64,000 nt of DNA from contig CBDCSU010000005.1 in NCBI GenBank assembly GCA_965221775.1, forward strand, positions 32,001-96,000. Reading direction: 5' to 3'. This DNA is from Candidatus Latescibacterota bacterium (GTDB lineage: Bacteria; Latescibacterota; UBA2968; UBA8231). Positions 13,282 through 37,400 of the stretch are shown one piece after another (position 1 is the stretch's first letter; each line of letters begins with the position of its first letter). Position numbers and translations under genes: made by a program. Below the pieces are notes generated by a model that did no database searches, was not told where the DNA came from, and saw only the letters and a list, made by a program, of their open reading frames with translations.

Positions 13282-14688
13282 TTGGTTGTTCCCGGGGGGC
13301 GGCCATCGGGCCGCCCCTGGTACGCCGGCGCCCTCCTGTTGCTGGGCGCCTGCGGCGACGGCGGCCCCTCCGGACCGGAGCCGGACCCGGCTGCGGACAA
13401 GGCCCTGTCCGGGGGGGCCGCCACCGTCTTCGACGCCGCCAGCACCGCCTTCGAGAACCCACTGCCCGGTCTCGACGGCGAGCAGTTGTCCCGCTTTCTC
13501 GACGGGGACGCCGACTTCGAGGCGATCTTCGTCAGCGCCCCCGCCGAGGTCAACGGCGGCCTCGGTCCGGTCTTCAACCAGACCTCCTGCGCCGGCTGCC
13601 ACGGCCGCGACGGGCGCGGCCGCTCGGGGTTCGGAGCGACCTCGCCCTTCATCGGCTCCTCCCTCATGCGGGTCAGCCTTCCCGGCGCCGGCTCCGAGCA
13701 TCCAGGCGCCCCGGCGCCGGTGCCGGGGTTCGGCGTGCAGATCGGCGACCGGGCGATCTTCGGGGTCACTCCCGAGGCGCGCGTGGAGGTGAGCTACTTC
13801 GAGGAGCAGGGCCGCTTCGACGACGGCGGGACCTACACCCTGCGGCACCCGACCTACCACATCATCGACCCCTACACGGAGTGGCCCGCGGGGGTGCTCA
13901 CCTCGGCGCGCATGGCGCCTCCCGTCTTCGGCCGGGGCCTGCTGGCGGCGGTGGAGGAAGCCGAGATCCTGGCCCTCGCCGACCCGGGGGACGCCGACGG
14001 GGACGGCGTCTCGGGGCGCCCCAACCACGTCTTCGACGTGGCCGCCGGGCGCACGGTCCTCGGCCGCTTCGGGTGGAAGGCCAACAACCCCACCCTGCTG
14101 CAGCAGGTGGCCGCCGCCTACAGCCAGGACATGGGCATCACCACCCCTTACTTCCCGCGCGAGTCGGCCGCCGGCCAGCCCCAGGCCGACGGCCTCACCG
14201 ACGACCCCGAGCTGCCCCGGGAGATCCTCGACGACGTCGTGTTCTACATCGCCACCCTCGCCGTCCCCGCCCGTCGCGGCCTGGACGACCCCGAGGCCCT
14301 GCGCGGCGAGGAGCTGTTCGAGACCGCCGGCTGCGCCACCTGCCACGTGCCCACCCTGCGCACCGGGCCGGACGAAGTCGCCGACCTGTCGAACCAGGTC
14401 ATCCATCCCTACACCGACCTGCTGCTCCACGACATGGGGGACGAGCTGGCCGACGACCGCCCCGACTACGAGGCCGACGGGCGCGAGTGGCGGACGCCGC
14501 CCCTGTGGGGCATCGGCCTGACGGCGACGGTGAACGGCGTCCCCGCCTACCTCCACGACGGCCGCGCCTCCACCCTCATGGAGGCGATCATGTTCCACGG
14601 CGGCGAGGGCGAGAAGTCGAGAGAGGCGGTGAGGCGGATGAGCGCCGCGGAGCGCAAGGCGCTGATCGCCTTCCTCAACTCGTTGTAG
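13282..14688 (+). CDS. Di-heme oxidoreductase (DHOR/DUF1111) lipoprotein
   Basis: GLGPVFNQTSCAGCH, GRFGWKA, CATCH, YTDLLLHDMG, WRTPPLWG, LHDGRA. Confidence 0.92.
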   Translation: MVVPGGRPSGRPWYAGALLLLGACGDGGPSGPEPDPAADKALSGGAATVFDAASTAFENPLPGLDGEQLSRFLDGDADFEAIFVSAPAEVNGGLGPVFNQTSCAGCHGRDGRGRSGFGATSPFIGSSLMRVSLPGAGSEHPGAPAPVPGFGVQIGDRAIFGVTPEARVEVSYFEEQGRFDDGGTYTLRHPTYHIIDPYTEWPAGVLTSARMAPPVFGRGLLAAVEEAEILALADPGDADGDGVSGRPNHVFDVAAGRTVLGRFGWKANNPTLLQQVAAAYSQDMGITTPYFPRESAAGQPQADGLTDDPELPREILDDVVFYIATLAVPARRGLDDPEALRGEELFETAGCATCHVPTLRTGPDEVADLSNQVIHPYTDLLLHDMGDELADDRPDYEADGREWRTPPLWGIGLTATVNGVPAYLHDGRASTLMEAIMFHGGEGEKSREAVRRMSAAERKALIAFLNSL

Positions 14689-14776
14689 GCTGGGAGGATC
14701 AGCGCCGCTCGGGGCGTGATCCCGAGCCTGGGCCAGGGCGGAGCGTGCTCCCGCCGCGTCTGCAGGGCCCGCGGTG

Positions 14777-15508
14777 TTACCGGGGCGGCAGGGAGACGCG
14801 CAGGTGGCCGGGAGCCCCGAAGTGGGGCGAGGCCTTCAACCCGAGGCCGAGGAACAGCCCCTGCCGCGCCCAGAAGACCAGGGGCCCCGCCTCCGGGGTG
14901 CGCAGGTCCACGCCCCGCGCGTAACCCCGCCCCGGCGCGGGGAGGGTATCCGGGCCCCTCGACTCGGGAAGCCCCGGGGAGCCGTACTCCCACGGGGCGC
15001 GGGCGACGCCGGTGACCACCACCTCTCCTCCCAGCCGCGCGATCCACAGGGACAGCCGCAGGGTCGGGTGCAGGCGCTCCCACTCGCCGCGCAGCTCCAG
15101 GGTCCGGAACCCCGCCTCCGGGAAGTGGGTCACCGACAGGCACCCGGCGGCCACCAGCAGGATGGGGACCGCCGCCATGAGCAGCAGGGCCCGCCGCGGG
15201 GAGGGCAGGCCGAAGGCCAGGCAGAGGGCTCCGGAGAGCGCCAGACCTCCGGCCAGCAGCCCGCCCGCCAGCGCCATCCACTCGGCCTCCGGGTAGCGCT
15301 GCAGGATGGCCAGCTGCACGCGCCCGGTGACCACCAGGGCCGCCGCCAGTCCCAGGCCGAGGCGCACCAGGCACCCGGGCAGGCGGGCCAGCGCGACGAA
15401 GGGGGCCGCGCTCCGGCGCCGCGCCGGCGGGGCCGGGTCGAAGCCGCGGGCGGATCCGGCCTCCGGGAGCTCCCCCGGGGCCGGACGCACCTCCTCCACG
15501 GCGCTCAC
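14777..15508 (-). CDS. Membrane protein with a probable degenerate M15/DD-peptidase-like C-terminal domain
   Basis: Three hydrophobic segments, then LHPTLRL...GVDLRT...GHLRVSL; GTG start overlaps the upstream stop. Confidence 0.55.
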   Translation of the reverse strand: MSAVEEVRPAPGELPEAGSARGFDPAPPARRRSAAPFVALARLPGCLVRLGLGLAAALVVTGRVQLAILQRYPEAEWMALAGGLLAGGLALSGALCLAFGLPSPRRALLLMAAVPILLVAAGCLSVTHFPEAGFRTLELRGEWERLHPTLRLSLWIARLGGEVVVTGVARAPWEYGSPGLPESRGPDTLPAPGRGYARGVDLRTPEAGPLVFWARQGLFLGLGLKASPHFGAPGHLRVSLPPR

Positions 15509-16914
15509 GAGCCGCTCGCGGGCGGGGGGTCGGTCCCCTCGCGGTGGCGGGAATCGATGCGGTCCAGCTTCTCGCTCAGGGCGATCATCACGTCCTGGGT
15601 GTCGGTCATGCGCGACTCGAGGGCGGCGAGGCGGTCCGTGAGGCCCGGGGGGTCCGGCTGGGTACGGCGGCGGACCACGTAGACCGCCCCCAGGCCGACG
15701 GCCAGCCCCAGCAGGCATCCTCCGAGGAGCACGAGCCAGTCGTCGCGTCCGGAGTCCCCCCGCAGTTCCCGCCGCAGGGCCTGCAGCAACTCGTCCTCAC
15801 GAGGACCGGCGTCCGCACCCATGGGACCGCCGGGCGATCCCCACGGAACCGTCCGGTGGTCCCAGGTGGCGGGACCCGGCGCATCGGTCCCGAGCATCCG
15901 CGCATCGGCCCGGGAGATGGCCCCCGCCGCCTGCTCCAGCCTCCGGGCCAGGGGATGGGAATGCGGTCGGGACTGCCTGGCCGCGGCTCTCTCGATCGCC
16001 GCGATCCAGACATCCGGATGCTCTCTCAGCCAGGTCTCCAGGTAAGCCTCCATCGCCTCGGCGTCGAACCCCGCCGACCAGTCCTCCGGCGCCAGCACGA
16101 GACGGCCCACCCGGTCGTCGCCCACCATCTTGATCGACCGCGGGGGCCCCCAGGGCACCCAGGAGGCGGTCTCCTCACAGCAGGCGGTCGGAGTAGGAGA
16201 GACCACGGAACCCCGGGGCGGCCCGTCGCCGTCGACGACGACCACGTCGAAACCGATCATCCCGCCGCCCTCGAGGCGGACCGCCCGGCCGGGGTCGGGG
16301 TTCATCGCCGTATAGCCGTGCCTCGGATCGGTCCGCGGATCGGCCGGCAAGCCGGAGCGCACCTGCACGCCCCACTCGTAGGTGGTGATCCTGCCGTCGC
16401 GGCGCAGCCAGGCGCCGCGGGACCTCCTGTCGACCCGGAGGTTGCGGTGGACCCCCCTGCGGTCGAAGCTGGTATAGGTGACCCGCCCCGGCACGAGGGC
16501 GTACTGGATCGGAGTGTGGTCCGACGACACGAGCCCGGAGACGTAGATCTCGCAGGCGTCGGTCTGTGACACCATCCAGTCCGAATAGAGGATATCGTCG
16601 CGCACCTCCACGGCCACGTAGAGCAGCTGCTCCTCCGGGTCGTACCCCACCCGGAAGGAGGGGCTGAGGTCCTGGCTGGTGTCGAGGTTCGTCGCCTCGG
16701 TGTCGGTGGGGCCGTAGGCGCCGAACTCGTTGCGAATCGGCAGGGACGGCATCTCCGGCGGCCAGTCGGACAGATCCCCGTCGACGGTGATGCCGGAGAG
16801 GGGCAGGGCCAGGGCCAGGTGGTCGGGCAGCTCCGCCCGCGCCAGGGGCGGTCCCGCAAGGCTCAACCCCGCCAGGACGACGGCGAGATGCAGGGGCGGG
16901 CAGGGTCGAGGCAT
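15505..16914 (-). CDS. CBM9/DOMON-like sugar-binding domain protein with C-terminal TM helix and cytoplasmic coiled coil
   Basis: Signal peptide, ITVDGDLSDW, YVAVEVRDD, IGFDVVVVDGD; TM WLVLLGGCLLGLAVGLGAVYVV. Confidence 0.7.
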   Translation of the reverse strand: MPRPCPPLHLAVVLAGLSLAGPPLARAELPDHLALALPLSGITVDGDLSDWPPEMPSLPIRNEFGAYGPTDTEATNLDTSQDLSPSFRVGYDPEEQLLYVAVEVRDDILYSDWMVSQTDACEIYVSGLVSSDHTPIQYALVPGRVTYTSFDRRGVHRNLRVDRRSRGAWLRRDGRITTYEWGVQVRSGLPADPRTDPRHGYTAMNPDPGRAVRLEGGGMIGFDVVVVDGDGPPRGSVVSPTPTACCEETASWVPWGPPRSIKMVGDDRVGRLVLAPEDWSAGFDAEAMEAYLETWLREHPDVWIAAIERAAARQSRPHSHPLARRLEQAAGAISRADARMLGTDAPGPATWDHRTVPWGSPGGPMGADAGPREDELLQALRRELRGDSGRDDWLVLLGGCLLGLAVGLGAVYVVRRRTQPDPPGLTDRLAALESRMTDTQDVMIALSEKLDRIDSRHREGTDPPPASGS

Positions 16915-16931
16915 AACTGTTCTCCGGGGGG

Positions 16932-17300
16932 TCAGGCCAGGTGTCCGTAGCGGCGCCGGTCCAGCTTGTCGGCCATATCTATCATGACTCCCTGAAGATC
17001 GGTCAACTGCCGGTCGATGCGGTCCATGCGGCCCCGCAGCTCCTCGGACCGGGATCCGGCCGCCGCCTCGGCCGGCATCCACGCCGAGAGCCGCAGGCCG
17101 CCGGCGTCGGTGAAGGCCCCGCAGAGGATGAGGATCAGGTCGATGAGCGACCAGATGCCGAAGCCTCCGAGGGTGAGCACCATCAACAGGCCGGTGCCCA
17201 TCTTGCCGACGTAGAACCGGTGCGCGCCGATCCAGCCGAGGAAGAAGCAGAGCAGCGCCGCCGCCAGGCGCGAACGAGTGGAGTGCTCGGAGCCGGTCAT
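16932..17300 (-). CDS. TM2 domain membrane protein
   Basis: SRLAAALLCFFLGWIGAHRFYVGKMGTG...WSLIDLILI. Confidence 0.92.
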   Translation of the reverse strand: MTGSEHSTRSRLAAALLCFFLGWIGAHRFYVGKMGTGLLMVLTLGGFGIWSLIDLILILCGAFTDAGGLRLSAWMPAEAAAGSRSEELRGRMDRIDRQLTDLQGVMIDMADKLDRRRYGHLA

Positions 17301-18028
17301 CGGGAACCCTCCCCTGTCTTTTCGCCGCGCGGGCGCAGGGCGGCCAACTCTTCATCGACCCGCCGGCGCATCTCGAGTTCCTCGAAGCGGCGCCCGAGGA
17401 CGCCGTCCTCCCCGAGAAGGGTGCGGCGCGCCTCGGCCGAGGCCTCCCCTGCCACCTCGGCCAGTTCCAGGCGCTGGCGCATGCGGTCGAACTCGCTGCG
17501 GTTGTGCTCCAGGCGCTGCCCCAGGCGGTCGAACTCGGCCGCCGGATCGCCTTCGAGATCGTCGCGCCGGAAGCCCACCTGGCGGCTGGCGCGGATGCGC
17601 GCGATCAGGGCGGCCTGGCGGTTGCGGGCCTCCTCCAGCTCCTGGCGCAGGGTCACCAGCTGACCCCGCAGCTGCGACGCCGTCCGGCGCCCCTCCTCGA
17701 GGGCCGGCTCGATGTCGTCGGCCGCCTGGTCGCTGAGCACCTTGCGGGCCAGCACCTGGCGGGCCAGCTCCTCGTCGCCGGCATCGAGGGCCTGGCGGGC
17801 CCGGCGCTCCAGCCGGCGGCTGCGCTCGCGGTGCTCCTCCTGGTCCTTCTCCAACCGGCGCTGGCCGGCCACGGCGGCGCCGGTGGCGCTGACGACCCGG
17901 TCGACCTCGGCCTCCATGTCGCGCACCATCTGGCGCACCATCCTCTCCGGGTCCTCCAGGTGATCGAGCAGGTCGTGGACGTTCGACCTGACGATACCGG
18001 AGATCCGGGACAACGTCGATTTGACCAT
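17297..18028 (-). CDS. pspA: PspA/IM30 (ESCRT-III-like) phage shock protein
   Basis: LSRISGIVRSNVHDLLDHLEDPERM...ALDAGDEELAR...VDEELAAL; GGAGG RBS before ATG at 18028. Confidence 0.9.
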   Translation of the reverse strand: MVKSTLSRISGIVRSNVHDLLDHLEDPERMVRQMVRDMEAEVDRVVSATGAAVAGQRRLEKDQEEHRERSRRLERRARQALDAGDEELARQVLARKVLSDQAADDIEPALEEGRRTASQLRGQLVTLRQELEEARNRQAALIARIRASRQVGFRRDDLEGDPAAEFDRLGQRLEHNRSEFDRMRQRLELAEVAGEASAEARRTLLGEDGVLGRRFEELEMRRRVDEELAALRPRGEKTGEGSR

Positions 18029-18071
18029 CTCTGCCTCCAGTTCGCTCCCGAGGGGTTTGCTTGCTTCCTGA

Positions 18072-18087
18072 TGCAATCCGGGTGCCA
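18072..18087 (-). promoter_or_regulatory. Sigma54 (-24/-12) promoter of the psp operon
   Basis: TGGCAC-CCGGA-TTGCA, a consensus match. Confidence 0.88.
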
Positions 18088-18198
18088 TCGCCTCCCCCAT
18101 TGGGGAAGACGAGACTCAACTTGCTGTCATACAGTCCATTGCAGGGAAAACCGCATGCTTGTCGGAAGGTGGCGGACCGGCTGGATCCGCCATCTCGA

Positions 18199-18213
18199 TG
18201 GCGGATTTCGCCA
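18199..18213. promoter_or_regulatory. Candidate enhancer (UAS) for a PspF-like activator
   Basis: Imperfect palindrome TGGCGGATTTCGCCA about 110-125 bp upstream of the sigma54 promoter; a second dyad at 18168-18194. Confidence 0.5.
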
Positions 18214-18318
18214 CCGGCGGACAGCGGATGGGGGAGCGAGGCCGCCCCGGGGTCTCGCCTCCGAGGCTTCCTCCTCGGGCCGCCCCTCCCCGCGCCGGCA
18301 GCCGATCCCGCGCAGGGA

Positions 18319-18553
18319 TCAGCCGGGGTACCCGGCCTCGCACAACCCCTGTCCGCCCCCGGTGACGGCCGGGGCCGGACCCAGGGTGCCCCGCGCCCGC
18401 CGCTTCTGCACCCAGGGCGTCTCCACGCCGTACTTGCGGCACAGCCGTCCGAAGCTGCGCAGGGTGATGCCGAGGGCGGCGCAGGCCTCCTGGGTTGCTC
18501 TTGTACATGCGGGCGACGCGCTCGATCGTCGCCTTGTCGAATCCCCGATTCAC
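18319..18553 (-). pseudogene. Small Fis-like HTH protein with a +1 frameshift
   Basis: MNRGFDKATIERVARMYKSN / QEACAALGITLRSFGRLCRKYGVETPW; removing one C from the run at 18492-18494 joins the frames; RBS AGGAGGGAG. Confidence 0.65.
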
Positions 18554-18618
18554 GGCTCCCTCCTGGTGAAGGATGGACGCCGGGGCCGGTCCCCGGCGAC
18601 TGAGGTCGAGGACGGTAC

Positions 18619-18634
18619 AGCAACCCTCGTGCCG
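18619..18634 (-). promoter_or_regulatory. Second sigma54 promoter, upstream of the small HTH gene
   Basis: CGGCAC-GAGGG-TTGCT. Confidence 0.7.
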
Positions 18635-18762
18635 GCCGCCGCGGGAAGCCTGCCTCAGAGAGCGGACCGGGAAGGAGCCTTCGGAGAGCGTTGCAGCGGT
18701 GGCCGCATCCGCCACCGTCCGGCGGCAGCCGCCGGAAGCGGGAGGGTTCCGCGAAGGGTCTC

Positions 18763-19998
18763 TTAGAGGAGGATCTCTCGCCCCTGGAGGAAGACGCGCT
18801 CCACGCGGAGCCCCTCGTCGAGGACGAGCAGGTCGGCGGTCTTGCCCGCCTCGAGGCTGCCGACGCGGGCGTCGATCCCGAGGATCCGCGCCGGCGTGAG
18901 GGAGGCCATGCGCACCACCTCGGCCAGGGGCGCGCCGGTCAGTTGGCGGAAGGTCCGCACCATGTGGTCCATGCCCTGGCACGACGAGGCCGGACCGCCG
19001 CCGTCCGGCGTCAGGCAGACGTCGCCGCGGCGCACGAAGGGCTCGCCGCCGGCCTCGGGGCCGAAGCGGTACTCGCCGTCGGGCCGGTCGAGGGCGCGGT
19101 TGCAGTCGGTCACCAGGGCGAGGCGCTCCGGCCCCTTGATCTTGTACGCCAGGCGCAGGAGTCCGGCGTCGAGATGGACGCCGTCGGCGATCACCTCGGT
19201 GGACAGCCCGTCGAGGAGCAGGGCCGCCTCGAGCACGCCGGCGCGCATCGGCCAGGGCTCCCGGCGGCGCAGCTTGGTCTTGTCCGACATGGCGCAGAAC
19301 AGGTGGTCCACGTGGGCCACACCCCAGGGCAGGCTGGCCTCCACCTGCGCCAGGGTGGCGTTGGAGTGGCCGGCGTGGAGCCGGATGCCCCGCCCCCGGG
19401 CGGCGCGGGCGAAGGCCTCGGCGCCGGGCAGTTCCGGGGCCACGGTGGCGCAGGCGATGGCGCCGCCCTCGGGCAGCCCGCCGAAGGCGAGATACGCCTC
19501 GAACTCCCCCGGCCGCGGCGGGCGCAGAGGGCCGGCCGGGTGGCAGCCCTGGGCCCCGGGGCCGAAGTAGGGGCCGTAGAAGTGGGCCCCCGCCACGCGG
19601 CTGCCGGCGCCGGAGCCTTCGCCGAAGAGACCGAATCCGCCGCTCGCGGCGGCCCGGGCGCAGACCCGCAGGGCCGCGAGGATCTGCTCGTGGAGGGCCA
19701 CTGTCGTCGTCGGAGCCACGGTGGTGGTGCCGTGGCGCAGATGGGCTCGCAGGACGGTGCGGAAGGCCGCGGCGGTGCCGTCCATGAAGTCGGCGCCCCC
19801 GCCGCCGTGACAGTGGAGGTCGACGTACCCGGGGGCGACCAGCCGGCCGTCGAGGTCGATCTCGGCGGCTCCCCTCGAGGCCTCCTTGTCGGCGGCGGGA
19901 CCGGCGGCGGCGATACGGCCGGCCGCGTCGACGAGGAGGCCGCCCTCCTCGACGCGGTCGGGCAGGATCAGGGAGCCGCCGCGCAGCAGCGAGGGCAT
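18763..19998 (-). CDS. nagA: N-acetylglucosamine-6-phosphate deacetylase-like amidohydrolase
   Basis: PGYVDLHCHGGGG, TVAPE, GHSNAT, HLFCAM, IADGVH, VTD, ASLTPA. Confidence 0.78.
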   Translation of the reverse strand: MPSLLRGGSLILPDRVEEGGLLVDAAGRIAAAGPAADKEASRGAAEIDLDGRLVAPGYVDLHCHGGGGADFMDGTAAAFRTVLRAHLRHGTTTVAPTTTVALHEQILAALRVCARAAASGGFGLFGEGSGAGSRVAGAHFYGPYFGPGAQGCHPAGPLRPPRPGEFEAYLAFGGLPEGGAIACATVAPELPGAEAFARAARGRGIRLHAGHSNATLAQVEASLPWGVAHVDHLFCAMSDKTKLRRREPWPMRAGVLEAALLLDGLSTEVIADGVHLDAGLLRLAYKIKGPERLALVTDCNRALDRPDGEYRFGPEAGGEPFVRRGDVCLTPDGGGPASSCQGMDHMVRTFRQLTGAPLAEVVRMASLTPARILGIDARVGSLEAGKTADLLVLDEGLRVERVFLQGREILL

Positions 19999-34188: not shown

Positions 34189-34204
34189 TGCAATTGGCGG
34201 GCCA
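34189..34204 (-). promoter_or_regulatory. Sigma54 promoter of the beta-glucan operon
   Basis: TGGCCC-GCCAA-TTGCA (GG-N10-GC) about 80 bp upstream of ATG at 34110. Confidence 0.75.
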
Positions 34205-34377
34205 GGCTCTCCGGGAATCGGAGAGAACCGGCCTAACTCGTTGGCCCACAGTGAAATCAAAATGCAGTGGACGCCGCAAGAGGGGTTCCACCCGCTCCTC
34301 GTCCGGGGCGAAATGTCCACTCCGGAAGCCCTGGACTGTAACCTATCCTGTTGATCTGGATCGAGTTACAGCGTATT

Positions 34378-34418: not shown

Positions 34419-37400
34419 TCAGCGGGGCCTCTCCAGGCCGAGCTTCTTCATGCGGCTGCGCAGGGTGGAGGGCGGAAGCCCGAGGGCCGCGGCCGCGCCT
34501 CCCTCGCCGCGGACGAGCCAGTTCCTCGACTCCAGGACGCGGCGGATGTAGCGGCGCTCGAACTCCTCCAGGGGCAGGACCTCGAGCTCGCCGGGCGGCG
34601 GCGGCGCCGCCTTCAGCCCCAGGTCGGCGGCCGTGATCCGGGGGCCGCGGCAGGCGATGACGGCGCGCTGCAAGGTGTGCTCCAGCTCGCGCACGTTCCC
34701 CGGCCACGGCTGCGCCCGCAGGACCGCCACGACCTCGGGCGTCAGGGGGCCGATGCGCTTGTCCAGGTGCGAGGCCATGCGCTCCTTGAACAGCTCCGCC
34801 AGGGCCGGCACGTCCTCCTGGCGGTCGCGCAGCGGCGGCAGGCGGACGGGCAGCACCTGCAGGCGGTAGTAGAGGTCCTCGCGGAAGTCGCCGTCGCGCA
34901 CCATCTGCTCCAGGTCGCGGTTGGTGGCGGCCACCACCCGGGCGTCGGCCCTCAGGGTGCGGCTGCCCCCCAGGCGCTCGAAGGTGCCGTCCTCCAGGAG
35001 CCGCAGCAGCTTCACCTGCGCCTCCAGCGGCATGTCGCCGATCTCGTCGAGGAACAGGGTGCCCCCCGCCGCCAGCTCGACCTTGCCGAGCTTGCGCGCC
35101 AGGGCGGTGGTGAACGACCCCTTCTCGTGACCGAAGAGCTCGCTGTCCACCAGGGTGGCGGGCAGGGCGCCGCAGTTGACGTGGATCAGGGGGCCGCCGC
35201 GGCGCCGGCCGAGGGCGTGCAGGATCCGGGCCGCAAGTCCCTTGCCCACCCCCGTCTCGCCGAGGATGAGCACGGTGAGATCGGCCTCCGCCGCCTCCAT
35301 GAGCCGCGTCTGCACCCGCTGCAGGGCGGCGCTGCGGCCGGTGAACTCGACCCCCGGGGCCTGGCCGCCGAGGGCCTCGGTCAGGGCGGCGATGCGCGGG
35401 TCGGGCTCGACCGAGACCGGGACCTCGGCGATCTCCGAGTAGTTCAGGTCGCGGTCGACGGCGCGCACCTGGAAGGTGTACTCCCCCTTCGGCAGGTCGC
35501 GGTAGTGGGCCCGCATGTTCCGGGTCGCCGGCCCCCAGTCGCGCTCGTGGCCCTGGAGGCGGACCACGTAGAGCATGTCCCGGGGATGGGTGGAGAAGCT
35601 CACGCCCTTGTACTCGAAGATCACCGGCTGGCCGGCGGACAGGACCACCGCCGACGGCGACTCGAAGACCTGGTCGGCCACGACCTGGTCGAGGCGCACC
35701 CGCGGCGGGTTGCGGCCCGGCCGGTAGCGGACCAGGGTGCCGAGGGCGGTGCCGAACCAGAACGTGCCCTCCCGGTCCTCCAGGATCTGCAGGACCGGCC
35801 CCGCCGGGGGCAGCTTGATCGTCTGGAAGAGCCGGCCGTCGTGGTGGGCGACGCCGCCGTCCGTGCCCAGCCAGAGATGCCCGCGGCGGTCCTCGAAGAG
35901 GCAGCGGACGCGGTTGCTCGGCAGGCCGTCGTCGGTGGTGTAGTTGTGGAACCGGCTGCCGTCGAAGCGGCTCAGGCCGTTCTGGGTGGCGATCCACAGG
36001 TGGCCGGAGCGGTCCTGCAGGAGATCGACCACGCGGTTGTCGGGCAGGCCGTCGTCGGTGGTGTACAGGGCGGCGCCGCGCTCGGGGTGCCAGCGGCCGA
36101 TCCCCTTGCCCCGGCCGAAGGGGTTGTGGGTCCCCAAGGCGTACCACAGCTCGCCGTTGCGGGCCGCCACCAGGGCGCCGATGTGGTTGAAGGGGTCCTC
36201 CTTGTCCTCCTCGCGGAAGACGGTGACGAAGCCCTGCCCCTGGCGGCGCACGATCTGCAGGGGGCTGGCGAAGAGCTCCTCCCTGCGGGCGGTGGTCCCG
36301 TTCACCCACTGACCCACCAGCAGCCGGCCGTCCCGGTCCTGGGCCACGGCGCTGACGCCGGCCTCGACGAAGCCGGCCTCGGCGCCGACCCGCTCGAAGC
36401 GGGCGCCGTCGTAGCGGAACAGCCCGTTGCCGCCGCCGAACCACAGGCCGCCGCCGCCGTCCTCGTAGATGGCGAAGCAGCTGTTGAGGTCGAGGCCCTC
36501 GCCGGCGCCGACGAACTCGTAGCCGCTGCCGTCGAAGCGGGCGACGCTGCGCGCCGTCAGGCTGAGGAAGGGGGTGGAGAACCCGATCCAGATGCGGCCC
36601 CCCCGGTCCTGCACCATCCGCGAGATCTCCGCCTCCCCCTCGGGGTAGTCCTCGGGGCGCTCGAAGAGACCGACGCCGAAGGCGTCGTAGCGGGCGACGC
36701 CGCCGCCCCAGGTGGCGAACCAGTGCTGGCGCTCGGGGTCCTGGAAGACGGCGTTGACCACCGGATAGGGCAGGCCGTCGGCGGTGGTGATGCGATCGAA
36801 GCCGTCTCCCGCCTGGTAGAGCGCCCCTCCGGAGGTGCACAGCCACAGGCGGCCGTCGCGGTCGCACTGGATCTTGCGGAGATGGCCGGGCAGGTCCACC
36901 GCCACCGGGTCGAAGCAGCGGCCGTCGAACCGCCAGATCCGCTGCCGCTCGCCGGCGCGGCCGATCCACAGGCCGCCCCCCGGGTCGCGGCCGACGACAT
37001 AGCAGCTGGCGTCGGCCGGCAGGCCCTCGGCCTCTCCGTAGCGGTGGAAGTCGCGGCCGTCGAAGCGGACCAGGTGGTCGAAGGCGAACCACAGGTCGCC
37101 GCGGGTGTCCTGGGTGATCCCCCAGCACTGGTTGGTCCAGCGCGGCGACGGCGGCTCTCCGTAGCGCTCGGCGTAGGCCGGCGCCAGGTCGCGGAACTCG
37201 CCGCCCTGGAACCAGCCCAGGGTCCCGGTGCCGGCGCACCAGAGGCGGGACTGGTCGTCCTCGAAGAGGGACTGGACGGGGCGGCCGGCGATGCCCTCGC
37301 CGACGGCGGGATGGAACCTGCAGCCGTCGTGCCAGCAGACGCCGCTGAGGGTTGCGAACCACAGCCGGTCGCCGCCGTCGCGGAGGATGGAGAACACGCG

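Follow-up and report, generated by a model that had tools for sequence, protein, structure and literature searches.

The pspA operon

Within a 64,000-nucleotide stretch of Candidatus Latescibacterota DNA (contig CBDCSU010000005.1, positions 32,001 to 96,000 of the forward strand; hereafter the window), a pspA gene heads a compact operon in which two otherwise unrelated membrane proteins end in the same short helix, which we call the tail. The window has a G+C content of about 73%, and every feature of the operon lies on the minus strand (Table 1). Downstream of a sigma54 promoter, four genes are tightly packed, encoding PspA, a TM2-domain protein, a single-pass membrane protein with a CBM9-fold ectodomain and a membrane protein with three transmembrane (TM) segments. 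Start and stop codons overlap at the first and the last of the three gene joins, and a 17-nt gap separates the TM2 gene from the CBM9-like gene. The neighbour beyond the fourth gene is convergent. The promoter is the sole perfect match to the sigma54 pattern within the 64-kb window. No sigma70 promoter was found within 14500-18800, and the one terminator-like site in this interval, inside the TM2 gene, is at chance level. The gene order had been proposed in an original prediction made from the DNA letters, and it agrees with the Pfam matches, the fold model and the coordinates obtained here. The sigma54 promoter that was predicted before pspA is likewise present, but its upper coordinate did not hold: the best site is that at 18073-18087, whereas the site at 18620-18634 carries one mismatch.

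The pspA product matches Pfam PspA_IM30 (PF04012) with 110 bits against a cut-off of 33.9 (E=1.7e-31), and the match covers residues 30-257 of the long open reading frame (ORF) and profile positions 3-216 of 220. The NCBIfam PspA equivalog models match it below their cut-offs only. Searches with phmmer, using the Escherichia coli proteins as queries against all six-frame window ORFs of at least 30 residues, found no PspB, PspC or PspD at E<=1, and Pfam found neither PspB nor PspC among the 52 called window genes, as the original prediction had claimed. No PspF-type activator free of a receiver domain adjoins the operon; the sole Sigma54_activat protein of the window is encoded at 34422-37397. 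Among the features of a classical Psp system, the window thus has the sigma54 promoter upstream of pspA and lacks PspB, PspC and an adjacent PspF.

Table 1 Features of the pspA operon in the window and the two types of related locus
Feature	Position or loci	Strand	Description
Fourth gene, 3-TM membrane protein	14777..15508	-	243 aa; C-terminal alpha/beta domain, no tail; its GTG start and the CBM9-like stop overlap (GTGA)
CBM9-fold single-pass membrane protein with tail	15505..16914	-	469 aa
Tail helix of the CBM9-like protein	15538..15642	-	One continuous helix, residues 425-459 in the AlphaFold2 model; the 28-residue peptide first noted is 15559-15642
TM2-domain protein with tail	16932..17300	-	122 aa; TM2 domain at residues 8-56 (17133-17279)
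Tail of the TM2 protein	16956..17039	-	Residues 88-115, LRGRMDRIDRQLTDLQGVMIDMADKLDR
pspA	17297..18028	-	243 aa; ATG at 18028 after GGAGG; stop overlaps the TM2 start (ATGA)
Sigma54 -24/-12 promoter of the pspA operon	18073..18087	-	TGGCACCCGGATTGC; perfect TGGCAC-N5-TTGC, 44 nt 5' of the pspA ATG
Small helix-turn-helix (HTH) ORF	18319..18553	-	5' of pspA; reading frame broken in the window by an additional C in the run 18492-18494
Second, weaker sigma54-like site	18620..18634	-	CGGCACGAGGGTTGC, one mismatch; 5' of the small HTH ORF, not directly 5' of pspA
Window-type loci	L001-L004, L008-L011, L018, L020		Order pspA, TM2-tail, CBM9-tail, 3-TM protein
Second-type loci	L012, L013, L014, L016, L017, L019		Sigma54-driven operon with another pspA paralogue

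A helix shared by two unrelated membrane proteins

The two tail peptides, at 16956-17039 and 15559-15642 on the minus strand, translate exactly as quoted in the original prediction. In a BLASTP comparison of the two whole proteins only the tails align, with 12 of 28 residues identical, 20 of 28 positive, no gaps and E=2e-4 under compositional adjustment. Comparison by hhalign of the TM2-tail family (A1, 30 sequences) with the CBM9-like family (A9, 32 sequences) also joined the tails only, over 35 columns, with a probability of 94.3% and E=1e-7. Given these two E-values for alignments restricted to the tails, the similarity is real and beyond chance, and the ungapped identity claimed for two otherwise unrelated proteins is borne out. 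A hidden Markov model (HMM) built from both tails found no third copy among 809 six-frame ORFs of the window, the next match having E=5.

The tail consensus reads R-L-x-x-I-E-x-R-L-T-D-x-Q-D-V-M-I-A-L-S-E-K-x-D-R. It forms one amphipathic helix, some 30-35 residues long, which lies from a few to a few dozen residues past the last TM segment. Four heptads can be traced along it, with a/d positions at columns 11, 14, 18, 21, 25, 28, 32 and 35 (columns of A4, a profile of 23 tails). Conserved positions cover all faces of the helix (T19, D20, Q22, D23, V24, I26, S29, E30, K31, D33 and R34), and the polar residues off the a/d faces are conserved equally to the heptad hydrophobics. Pfam searches with the tails alone gave nothing meaningful at E<=10, and the tail falls within no Pfam or NCBIfam model. 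A sequence search of the PDB gave nothing similar, its best match (E=1.3) being the C-terminal part of a bacterial ion-transport protein. The ESM Atlas returned only clusters named 'hypothetical protein', mostly from Gemmatimonadota and with scores of 0.88, which serve as leads only. Judged by its sequence, the tail represents a separate protein module, as yet without annotation, of an undescribed family.

The two tail-bearing proteins of the window

The 469-residue protein was modelled with AlphaFold2 (AF2) from a 32-sequence alignment, giving a mean pLDDT of 74.6. In this model a hydrophobic N-terminal helix is followed by a beta-sandwich at residues ~30-280 (16075-16827) and a poorly predicted linker, after which come a TM helix at residues 391-418 (15661-15744), an RRR motif, a short Pro/Gly break and the tail helix. 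Within the beta-sandwich, block-mean pLDDT goes up to 98, with lows of 53-61 near residues 61-70, 191-200 and 231-250. A Foldseek search against the PDB superimposed the sandwich on solved CBM9 modules, with 1i82_A at E=2.9e-9 and a TM-score by target of 0.77, 7nwn at E=7.7e-9, and 7nwo; the haem-binding DOMON-type relatives match far more weakly (2ivf_C, E=8.7e-4). The window protein itself scores 16 bits with Pfam CBM9_1 (PF06452), below the cut-off of 23.4, which is passed by orthologues and paralogues, for example the L020 orthologue (40.5 bits) and P0245 (38.5 bits). In the AF2 model the ectodomain thus has the CBM9 fold that the original prediction had proposed for it, and glycan binding is putative.

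The tail is the best-conserved segment of the CBM9-like family: across 32 homologues, mean column conservation reaches 0.83 for the tail, compared with 0.60 for the ectodomain and 0.23 for the linker. The core TDTQDVMIALSEKLDR (T-D-T-Q-D-V-M-I-A-L-S-E-K-L-D-R) is kept in homologues just 36-41% identical overall. Among the 51 CBM9-like homologues listed, 35 carry the tail, and the other 16 are fragments or have other architectures. Given the hydrophobic N-terminal leader, an extracytoplasmic-type fold and a single TM segment followed by RRR, the tail of this protein would lie in the cytoplasm. A fragment of a CBM9-like gene at L010:3-563, in one of the related loci described below, joins the start of the ectodomain (D-G-D-L-S-D) straight to the tail, the remaining ectodomain and the TM segment being gone. 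The same junction occurs in the 99-residue cluster representative P0181. The L010 fragment is either a deletion or an assembly artefact.

The 122-residue protein contains a full TM2 domain, matching PF05154 with 70.9 bits against a cut-off of 27.9 (E=1e-19). Among 24 orthologues, the TM2 domain has the highest mean column conservation (0.81), followed by the tail (0.75) and the linker (0.54). The tail is present (independent E-value, i-E, <=1e-3) in 68 of the 120 TM2 homologues listed; the other 52 are TM2 proteins that lack it. One TM2 protein, P0113 (133 residues), shares this length and layout and ends in another helix (…E-R-V-D-F-M-E-R-V-L…). It was not counted as tail-bearing because its match to the tail HMM is weak (i-E 4.1, 14 residues). 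The TM2 domain appears, from such sequences, to have acquired other C-terminal helices too.

A family of tail-bearing membrane proteins

The A4 profile was searched against 1.84 billion cluster representatives and matched 214 clusters at E<=1e-3, 99 of them at E<=1e-10. The best 150 of the 214 were analysed in detail, and 143 of these were new, 7 being known from the earlier homologue searches. A single tail occurs in 131 of the 143 new representatives, at most 25 residues from the C-terminus in all but two (129/131). Most of the single-tail representatives (116/131) are shorter than 190 residues, and in 76 of these 116 a hydrophobic stretch precedes the tail. Such small members often have one or two hydrophobic segments before the tail, with basic residues directly after the TM segment. 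The remaining 15 measure 231-466 residues, and 13 of them match CBM9_1 at E<=0.01. The new matches also include 12 giant or repetitive coiled-coil proteins, among them P0172 (4853 residues), in which up to 36 stretches match; they are considered below.

In total, the tail sits at the C-terminus, past the last TM segment, in at least five membrane-protein architectures. In Gemmatimonadota it is carried by TM2 proteins, by proteins with either of two kinds of CBM9-fold ectodomain, and by very small proteins of several kinds. The proteins are named 'hypothetical' or 'TM2 domain-containing' in the databases and come from Gemmatimonadota or Latescibacteria metagenome-assembled genomes (MAGs), all relatives being uncultured MAG records. 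Through the tail, more than 200 clusters of 'hypothetical' small proteins can be recognised as probable members of one system. The portability proposed in the original prediction is therefore upheld, the tails being homologous and conserved across these architectures. The picture of two contrasting carriers from which it started needs amending, since most of the listed members are short tail proteins of fewer than 190 residues.

Linkage of the tail to sigma54-driven pspA operons

One genome per species was scanned with two tail peptide patterns, which retrieved 20 loci with 36 tail-bearing ORFs from 10 assemblies. Both patterns describe CBM9-type tails (A3), so that loci with only TM2-type or divergent small tails could be missed. 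In 16 of the 20 loci pspA lies upstream on the same strand, and two or three tail ORFs are present in 14 of these 16. The search selected loci via the tail and not via pspA, so that this linkage was not built into it. The original prediction had suggested searching with a tail HMM for other domain partners and for co-occurrence with pspA, and had allowed that the motif might turn out to be a generic coiled coil without enrichment next to pspA; other carriers were found, and the 16 linked loci show that the latter is not the outcome.

The pspA-linked loci fall into two types (Table 1). The window-type loci share the gene order of the window, and their PspA proteins include close orthologues of the window protein (96% identical in L001 and L002, 95% in L004). 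Three of them (L008, L010 and L020) have an extra tail-bearing CBM9_1 gene. The fourth gene follows the tail genes in nine of the ten, L001 ending before it. In the second type, read in L014:6604-11561, pspA is followed by a protein with two TM segments and a weak winged-helix match, then by two small tail proteins, and then by regulators, namely a histidine kinase with TPR and HATPase_c domains and a response regulator with Response_reg, Sigma54_activat and HTH_8 domains. The pspA paralogue of this type is 40-42% identical to window PspA at the protein level, and in L012 just one tail was detected. Between the end of the pspA ORF and the first tail lie 230-308 bp in nine window-type loci and 574 bp in L018; in second-type loci the distance is 708-735 bp. 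Both operon types occur together in each of the four relatives closest to the window, and the genome of the window therefore probably holds the second type elsewhere.

A sigma54 element lies 5' of pspA in all 15 loci for which upstream DNA is available; 13 of these elements are perfect and two have one mismatch. Across the 20 loci (502,750 nt, both strands) there are 14 perfect sigma54 sites, and 13 of them are those of pspA. The proposal that the lone CBM9-tail paralogues of the remaining four loci belong to the same regulon was rejected, as no perfect sigma54 site lies upstream of them.

Other features of the window

The fourth gene of the operon belongs to no Pfam or NCBIfam family, and even its distant orthologues have no Pfam match. 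Its AF2 model (pLDDT 78.5) contains three TM helices, and the best meaningful Foldseek matches are Hedgehog N-terminal domains, which have the LAS fold of zinc peptidases such as lysostaphin and D-Ala-D-Ala peptidase, with E=0.16-0.4, probability 0.85-0.96 and a TM-score by target of ~0.43, which is not significant. Two distant orthologues (L008:9060-9785 and L020:9827-10606) carry the motifs G-Y-A-H-A-x-D and D-H-L-H-V, which we take to be the LAS metal ligands; the window protein has Y-A-R-G-V-D and G-H-L-R-V instead. The domain may be non-catalytic in the window lineage, because Arg replaces two motif His residues in the window and its closest relatives. A periplasmic domain resembling peptidoglycan peptidases is suggested by the model as a lead and no more. 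Assignment of the fourth gene to a known enzyme was rejected, given the absence of a Pfam match and the non-significant LAS/Hedgehog fold match.

Upstream of pspA, the small HTH ORF has weak HTH matches only in Pfam. It is intact (62-64 residues) in L001-L004. DNA alignment of the frameshift region gives AGCAACCCAGG in the window and AGCAACCAGG in L001, L002 and L004, so that the extra C is either a homopolymer sequencing error or the mark of a real pseudogene. At the position equivalent to the weaker sigma54-like site, L001, L002 and L004 carry GGGCACGGGCCTTGC. Matches to the HTH ORF lie upstream of the window-type operon in L001-L004 and L008, and an amidohydrolase homologue does so in L001-L004.

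The large sigma54 activator at 34422-37397 (minus strand), 16 kb from the psp operon, has Reg_prop/Y_Y_Y sensor repeats and adjoins a cluster with GH3, GH16, an MFS sugar transporter and an FlgD_ig protein. Two sigma54-like sites with one mismatch each, at 34190-34204 and 34276-34290 (minus strand), lie near the start of the activator's neighbour gene. These features suggest that a glycan-use cluster with no relation to the psp operon is under sigma54 control.

Comparison with known systems

In the proteobacterial PspF-ABC system, PspB and PspC are signalling units that engage PspA (PMC9239133). The window operon resembles that system in that inner-membrane partners are encoded directly after a sigma54-dependent pspA, with two different ones side by side. 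The layout of PspB, an N-terminal TM segment followed by a charged cytoplasmic helix, matches that of the small tail proteins, which is a likeness of layout only. Unlike PspB and PspC, the tail helix is also fused to large modules (TM2, CBM9 fold). Unlike in PspF-ABC, no PspF-type activator adjoins the window operon, and the second-type operon carries an activator with a receiver domain. Comparison by hhalign of the tail and small-protein profiles with E. coli PspB or a 14-sequence PspB alignment gave probabilities of 3-11%, and that of the tail with E. coli PspC gave 0.4%. A very remote link to PspB is possible because the PspB alignment is shallow (14 enterobacterial sequences, 84-92% identical). 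Pfam PspB (PF06667) matched one of 57 small members below threshold (19.5 bits against 25.6). With NCBIfam, PspB (TIGR02976) matched two of the 57 (best E=1.8e-4), PspM two, and the PspC models two and one, all below their cut-offs and, for PspB and PspC, by a wide margin.

SHOCT and SHOCT-like modules, described as membrane tethers associated with Psp, are short, portable and often terminal helical modules that occur on disparate domains and in Psp neighbourhoods; they have been proposed to assemble membrane-associated complexes, and the SHOCT-like ones mostly do not stand beside TM segments (main text of PMC11237479). As described there, SHOCT is bi-helical, whereas the tail of the CBM9-like protein is modelled as one continuous helix. 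No SHOCT match was found in the Pfam scans of the tails (E<=10) or among the 25 most-matched of 90 families for the 57 small proteins. PghK-type sensor kinases have a periplasmic, inner-membrane-anchored domain of CBM9-like/DOMON-like type that serves as a sensor of envelope (peptidoglycan) damage and feeds a response in the cytoplasm (bioRxiv 10.1101/2023.05.05.539549). Their output is a histidine-kinase domain in the same polypeptide, whereas the window protein has only a tail of ~35 residues; the ligand is unproven in both. Compared with TM2 proteins in general (PF05154; YozV/'NINE protein' type), the window protein has the full domain, and in this analysis only Gemmatimonadota or Latescibacterota records yielded the sub-family that bears the tail and adjoins pspA. 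In the literature searched, we found no published account of the tail/pspA/TM2/CBM9 arrangement or of a Gemmatimonadota Psp system. The main texts of the Psp surveys PMC11237479 and PMC9239133, to which this check was confined, contain no 'TM2', 'Gemmatimon' or 'CBM'.

Possible roles of the tail

We tentatively favour, with a confidence slightly short of even, a model in which the tails are the membrane arm of a non-canonical Psp system, comparable to PspB and PspC without being homologous to them and most likely serving PspA. In this model all tails would lie in the cytoplasm. The tails of two or three co-encoded membrane proteins would assemble via their heptad faces, and the other conserved faces would be left to engage a single common partner in the cytoplasm, with PspA the likeliest candidate. 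One PspA membrane-repair response could thereby take input from different sensors. It is also conceivable, if somewhat doubtful, that the tail serves a lineage-specific Psp system as a universal adaptor peptide, a cytoplasmic helix open to any membrane or periplasmic sensor, which would bind PspA, an ESCRT-III-type protein, directly; its carriers so far would be the TM2 domain, the CBM9-fold domain as a glycan or peptidoglycan sensor, and minimal TM stubs. A complex prediction for PspA (A7) with the tail (A4) reached a score of 0.01, the mark being 0.32; this is read as 'no answer' and counts neither for nor against binding.

Several points weigh against the favoured model. That a tail binds PspA or another tail is what we infer from gene order alone. 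The linkage to pspA amounts to about two independent associations and not 16, because the 10 assemblies are related and the operons are of two types. The genomic context of the small members is known from the second operon type only. Lone CBM9-tail paralogues occur in L005, L006, L007 and L015 (4 of the 20 loci), where neither a PspA (HMM, E<=1e-3) nor a perfect sigma54 site was found in the flanks. A cytoplasmic tail is clear for the CBM9-like and the small proteins and ambiguous for the TM2 protein: the N-flank, the inter-TM loop and the C-flank of the latter have about two basic residues each, and with basic residues so evenly spread its tail could be periplasmic. The 12 repetitive coiled-coil proteins among the 143 new profile matches cover profile positions 2-24 only, which shows the R-L-x-x-I-E-x-R-L half of the motif to be generic, the specific part being T-D-x-Q-D-V-M-I-A-L-S-E-K-x-D-R. 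Finally, homology of the tail to PspB or PspC was considered and rejected, as none is detectable at the depth of the alignments used (hhalign 0.4-11%, sub-threshold Pfam and NCBIfam matches).

Other roles fit part of the same evidence. C-terminal coiled coils hold some bacterial channels together, and the tail might act as an oligomerisation element only, a cytoplasmic coiled coil that joins the co-encoded membrane proteins while PspA is co-expressed without contact. Hydrophobic residues at columns 7, 11, 14, 18, (21), 25, 28, 32 and 35, spread over four heptads, would suit such a role, as would the two or three tails encoded in 14 of the 16 pspA-linked loci. Within a locus, moreover, one tail is of the canonical TDTQD type and another is a variant that has a hydrophobic core residue (TDLQG in TM2, RDVLD in the second small protein), and the nearest PDB sequence, non-significant at E=1.3, is the C-terminal part of an ion-transport protein. 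However, conservation of all helix faces, including b, c and f, exceeds the need of a two-stranded coiled coil, and four of the 20 loci encode a lone tail protein; we hold this role to be unlikely. The tail could instead dock a regulator, passing membrane input to the TPR histidine kinase that would switch on both sigma54-driven pspA operons. In L014 the two tail proteins directly precede that kinase and the sigma54-activator response regulator, the E. coli PspF query finds an activator in five of the six second-type loci (L012, L013, L014, L016 and L017), and a sigma54 promoter is common to both operon types. No activator is encoded in the window operon itself, the sole one of the window, with its Reg_prop/Y_Y_Y sensor, being 16 kb off. 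Yet the window-type operon has tails and no kinase nearby, and the lack of a TM segment in the kinase was judged by eye; we consider regulator docking decidedly improbable.

A role that needs no protein partner, in which the tail is an amphipathic helix at the membrane surface that senses or stabilises a stressed or curved bilayer, draws on its position directly after a TM segment, on the five apolar residues (V-M-I-A-L) between charged ones, and on the response of PspA systems to membrane stress described in the main text of PMC9239133. Such helices usually drift in sequence, whereas T, D, Q, D, S, E, K, D and R of the tail are nearly invariant; in addition, acidic and basic charges lie all round the helix, and a Pro/Gly-rich break separates it from the TM segment in the CBM9-like protein. 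We give this role very little credence. Least credible of all is that two charged coiled-coil segments resemble each other by chance, with neither common origin nor function. The segments are short (28 residues) and compositionally biased, and the first half of the motif does match unrelated repetitive coiled-coil proteins. This explanation is contradicted by the composition-corrected BLASTP and the hhalign E-values, by the recurrence of the 16-residue core in 131 single-tail representatives, C-terminal in 129 of them, and by the adjacency of pspA in 16 of the 20 loci.

To our knowledge, PspA/IM30/ESCRT-III proteins repair membranes in all domains of life, and the recruitment of PspA is understood mainly for the proteobacterial PspB/PspC and a few Gram-positive systems. 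The TM2 domain is, as far as we know, widespread and functionally obscure. Were the helix merely a coiled-coil glue, the outcome would still be a new family annotation, of modest reach. If the tails form the membrane arm proposed here, PspA systems would gain a whole group of new partners united by a short and highly conserved helix, which would offer a concrete peptide for PspA binding, and a CBM9-fold periplasmic domain and the TM2 domain would be linked to envelope stress. If the tail proves to be an adaptor that binds PspA directly, it would provide bacterial membrane repair with an input layer into which sensors plug as modules and whose origin is independent of PspB and PspC, and would give the TM2 domain its first physiological context.

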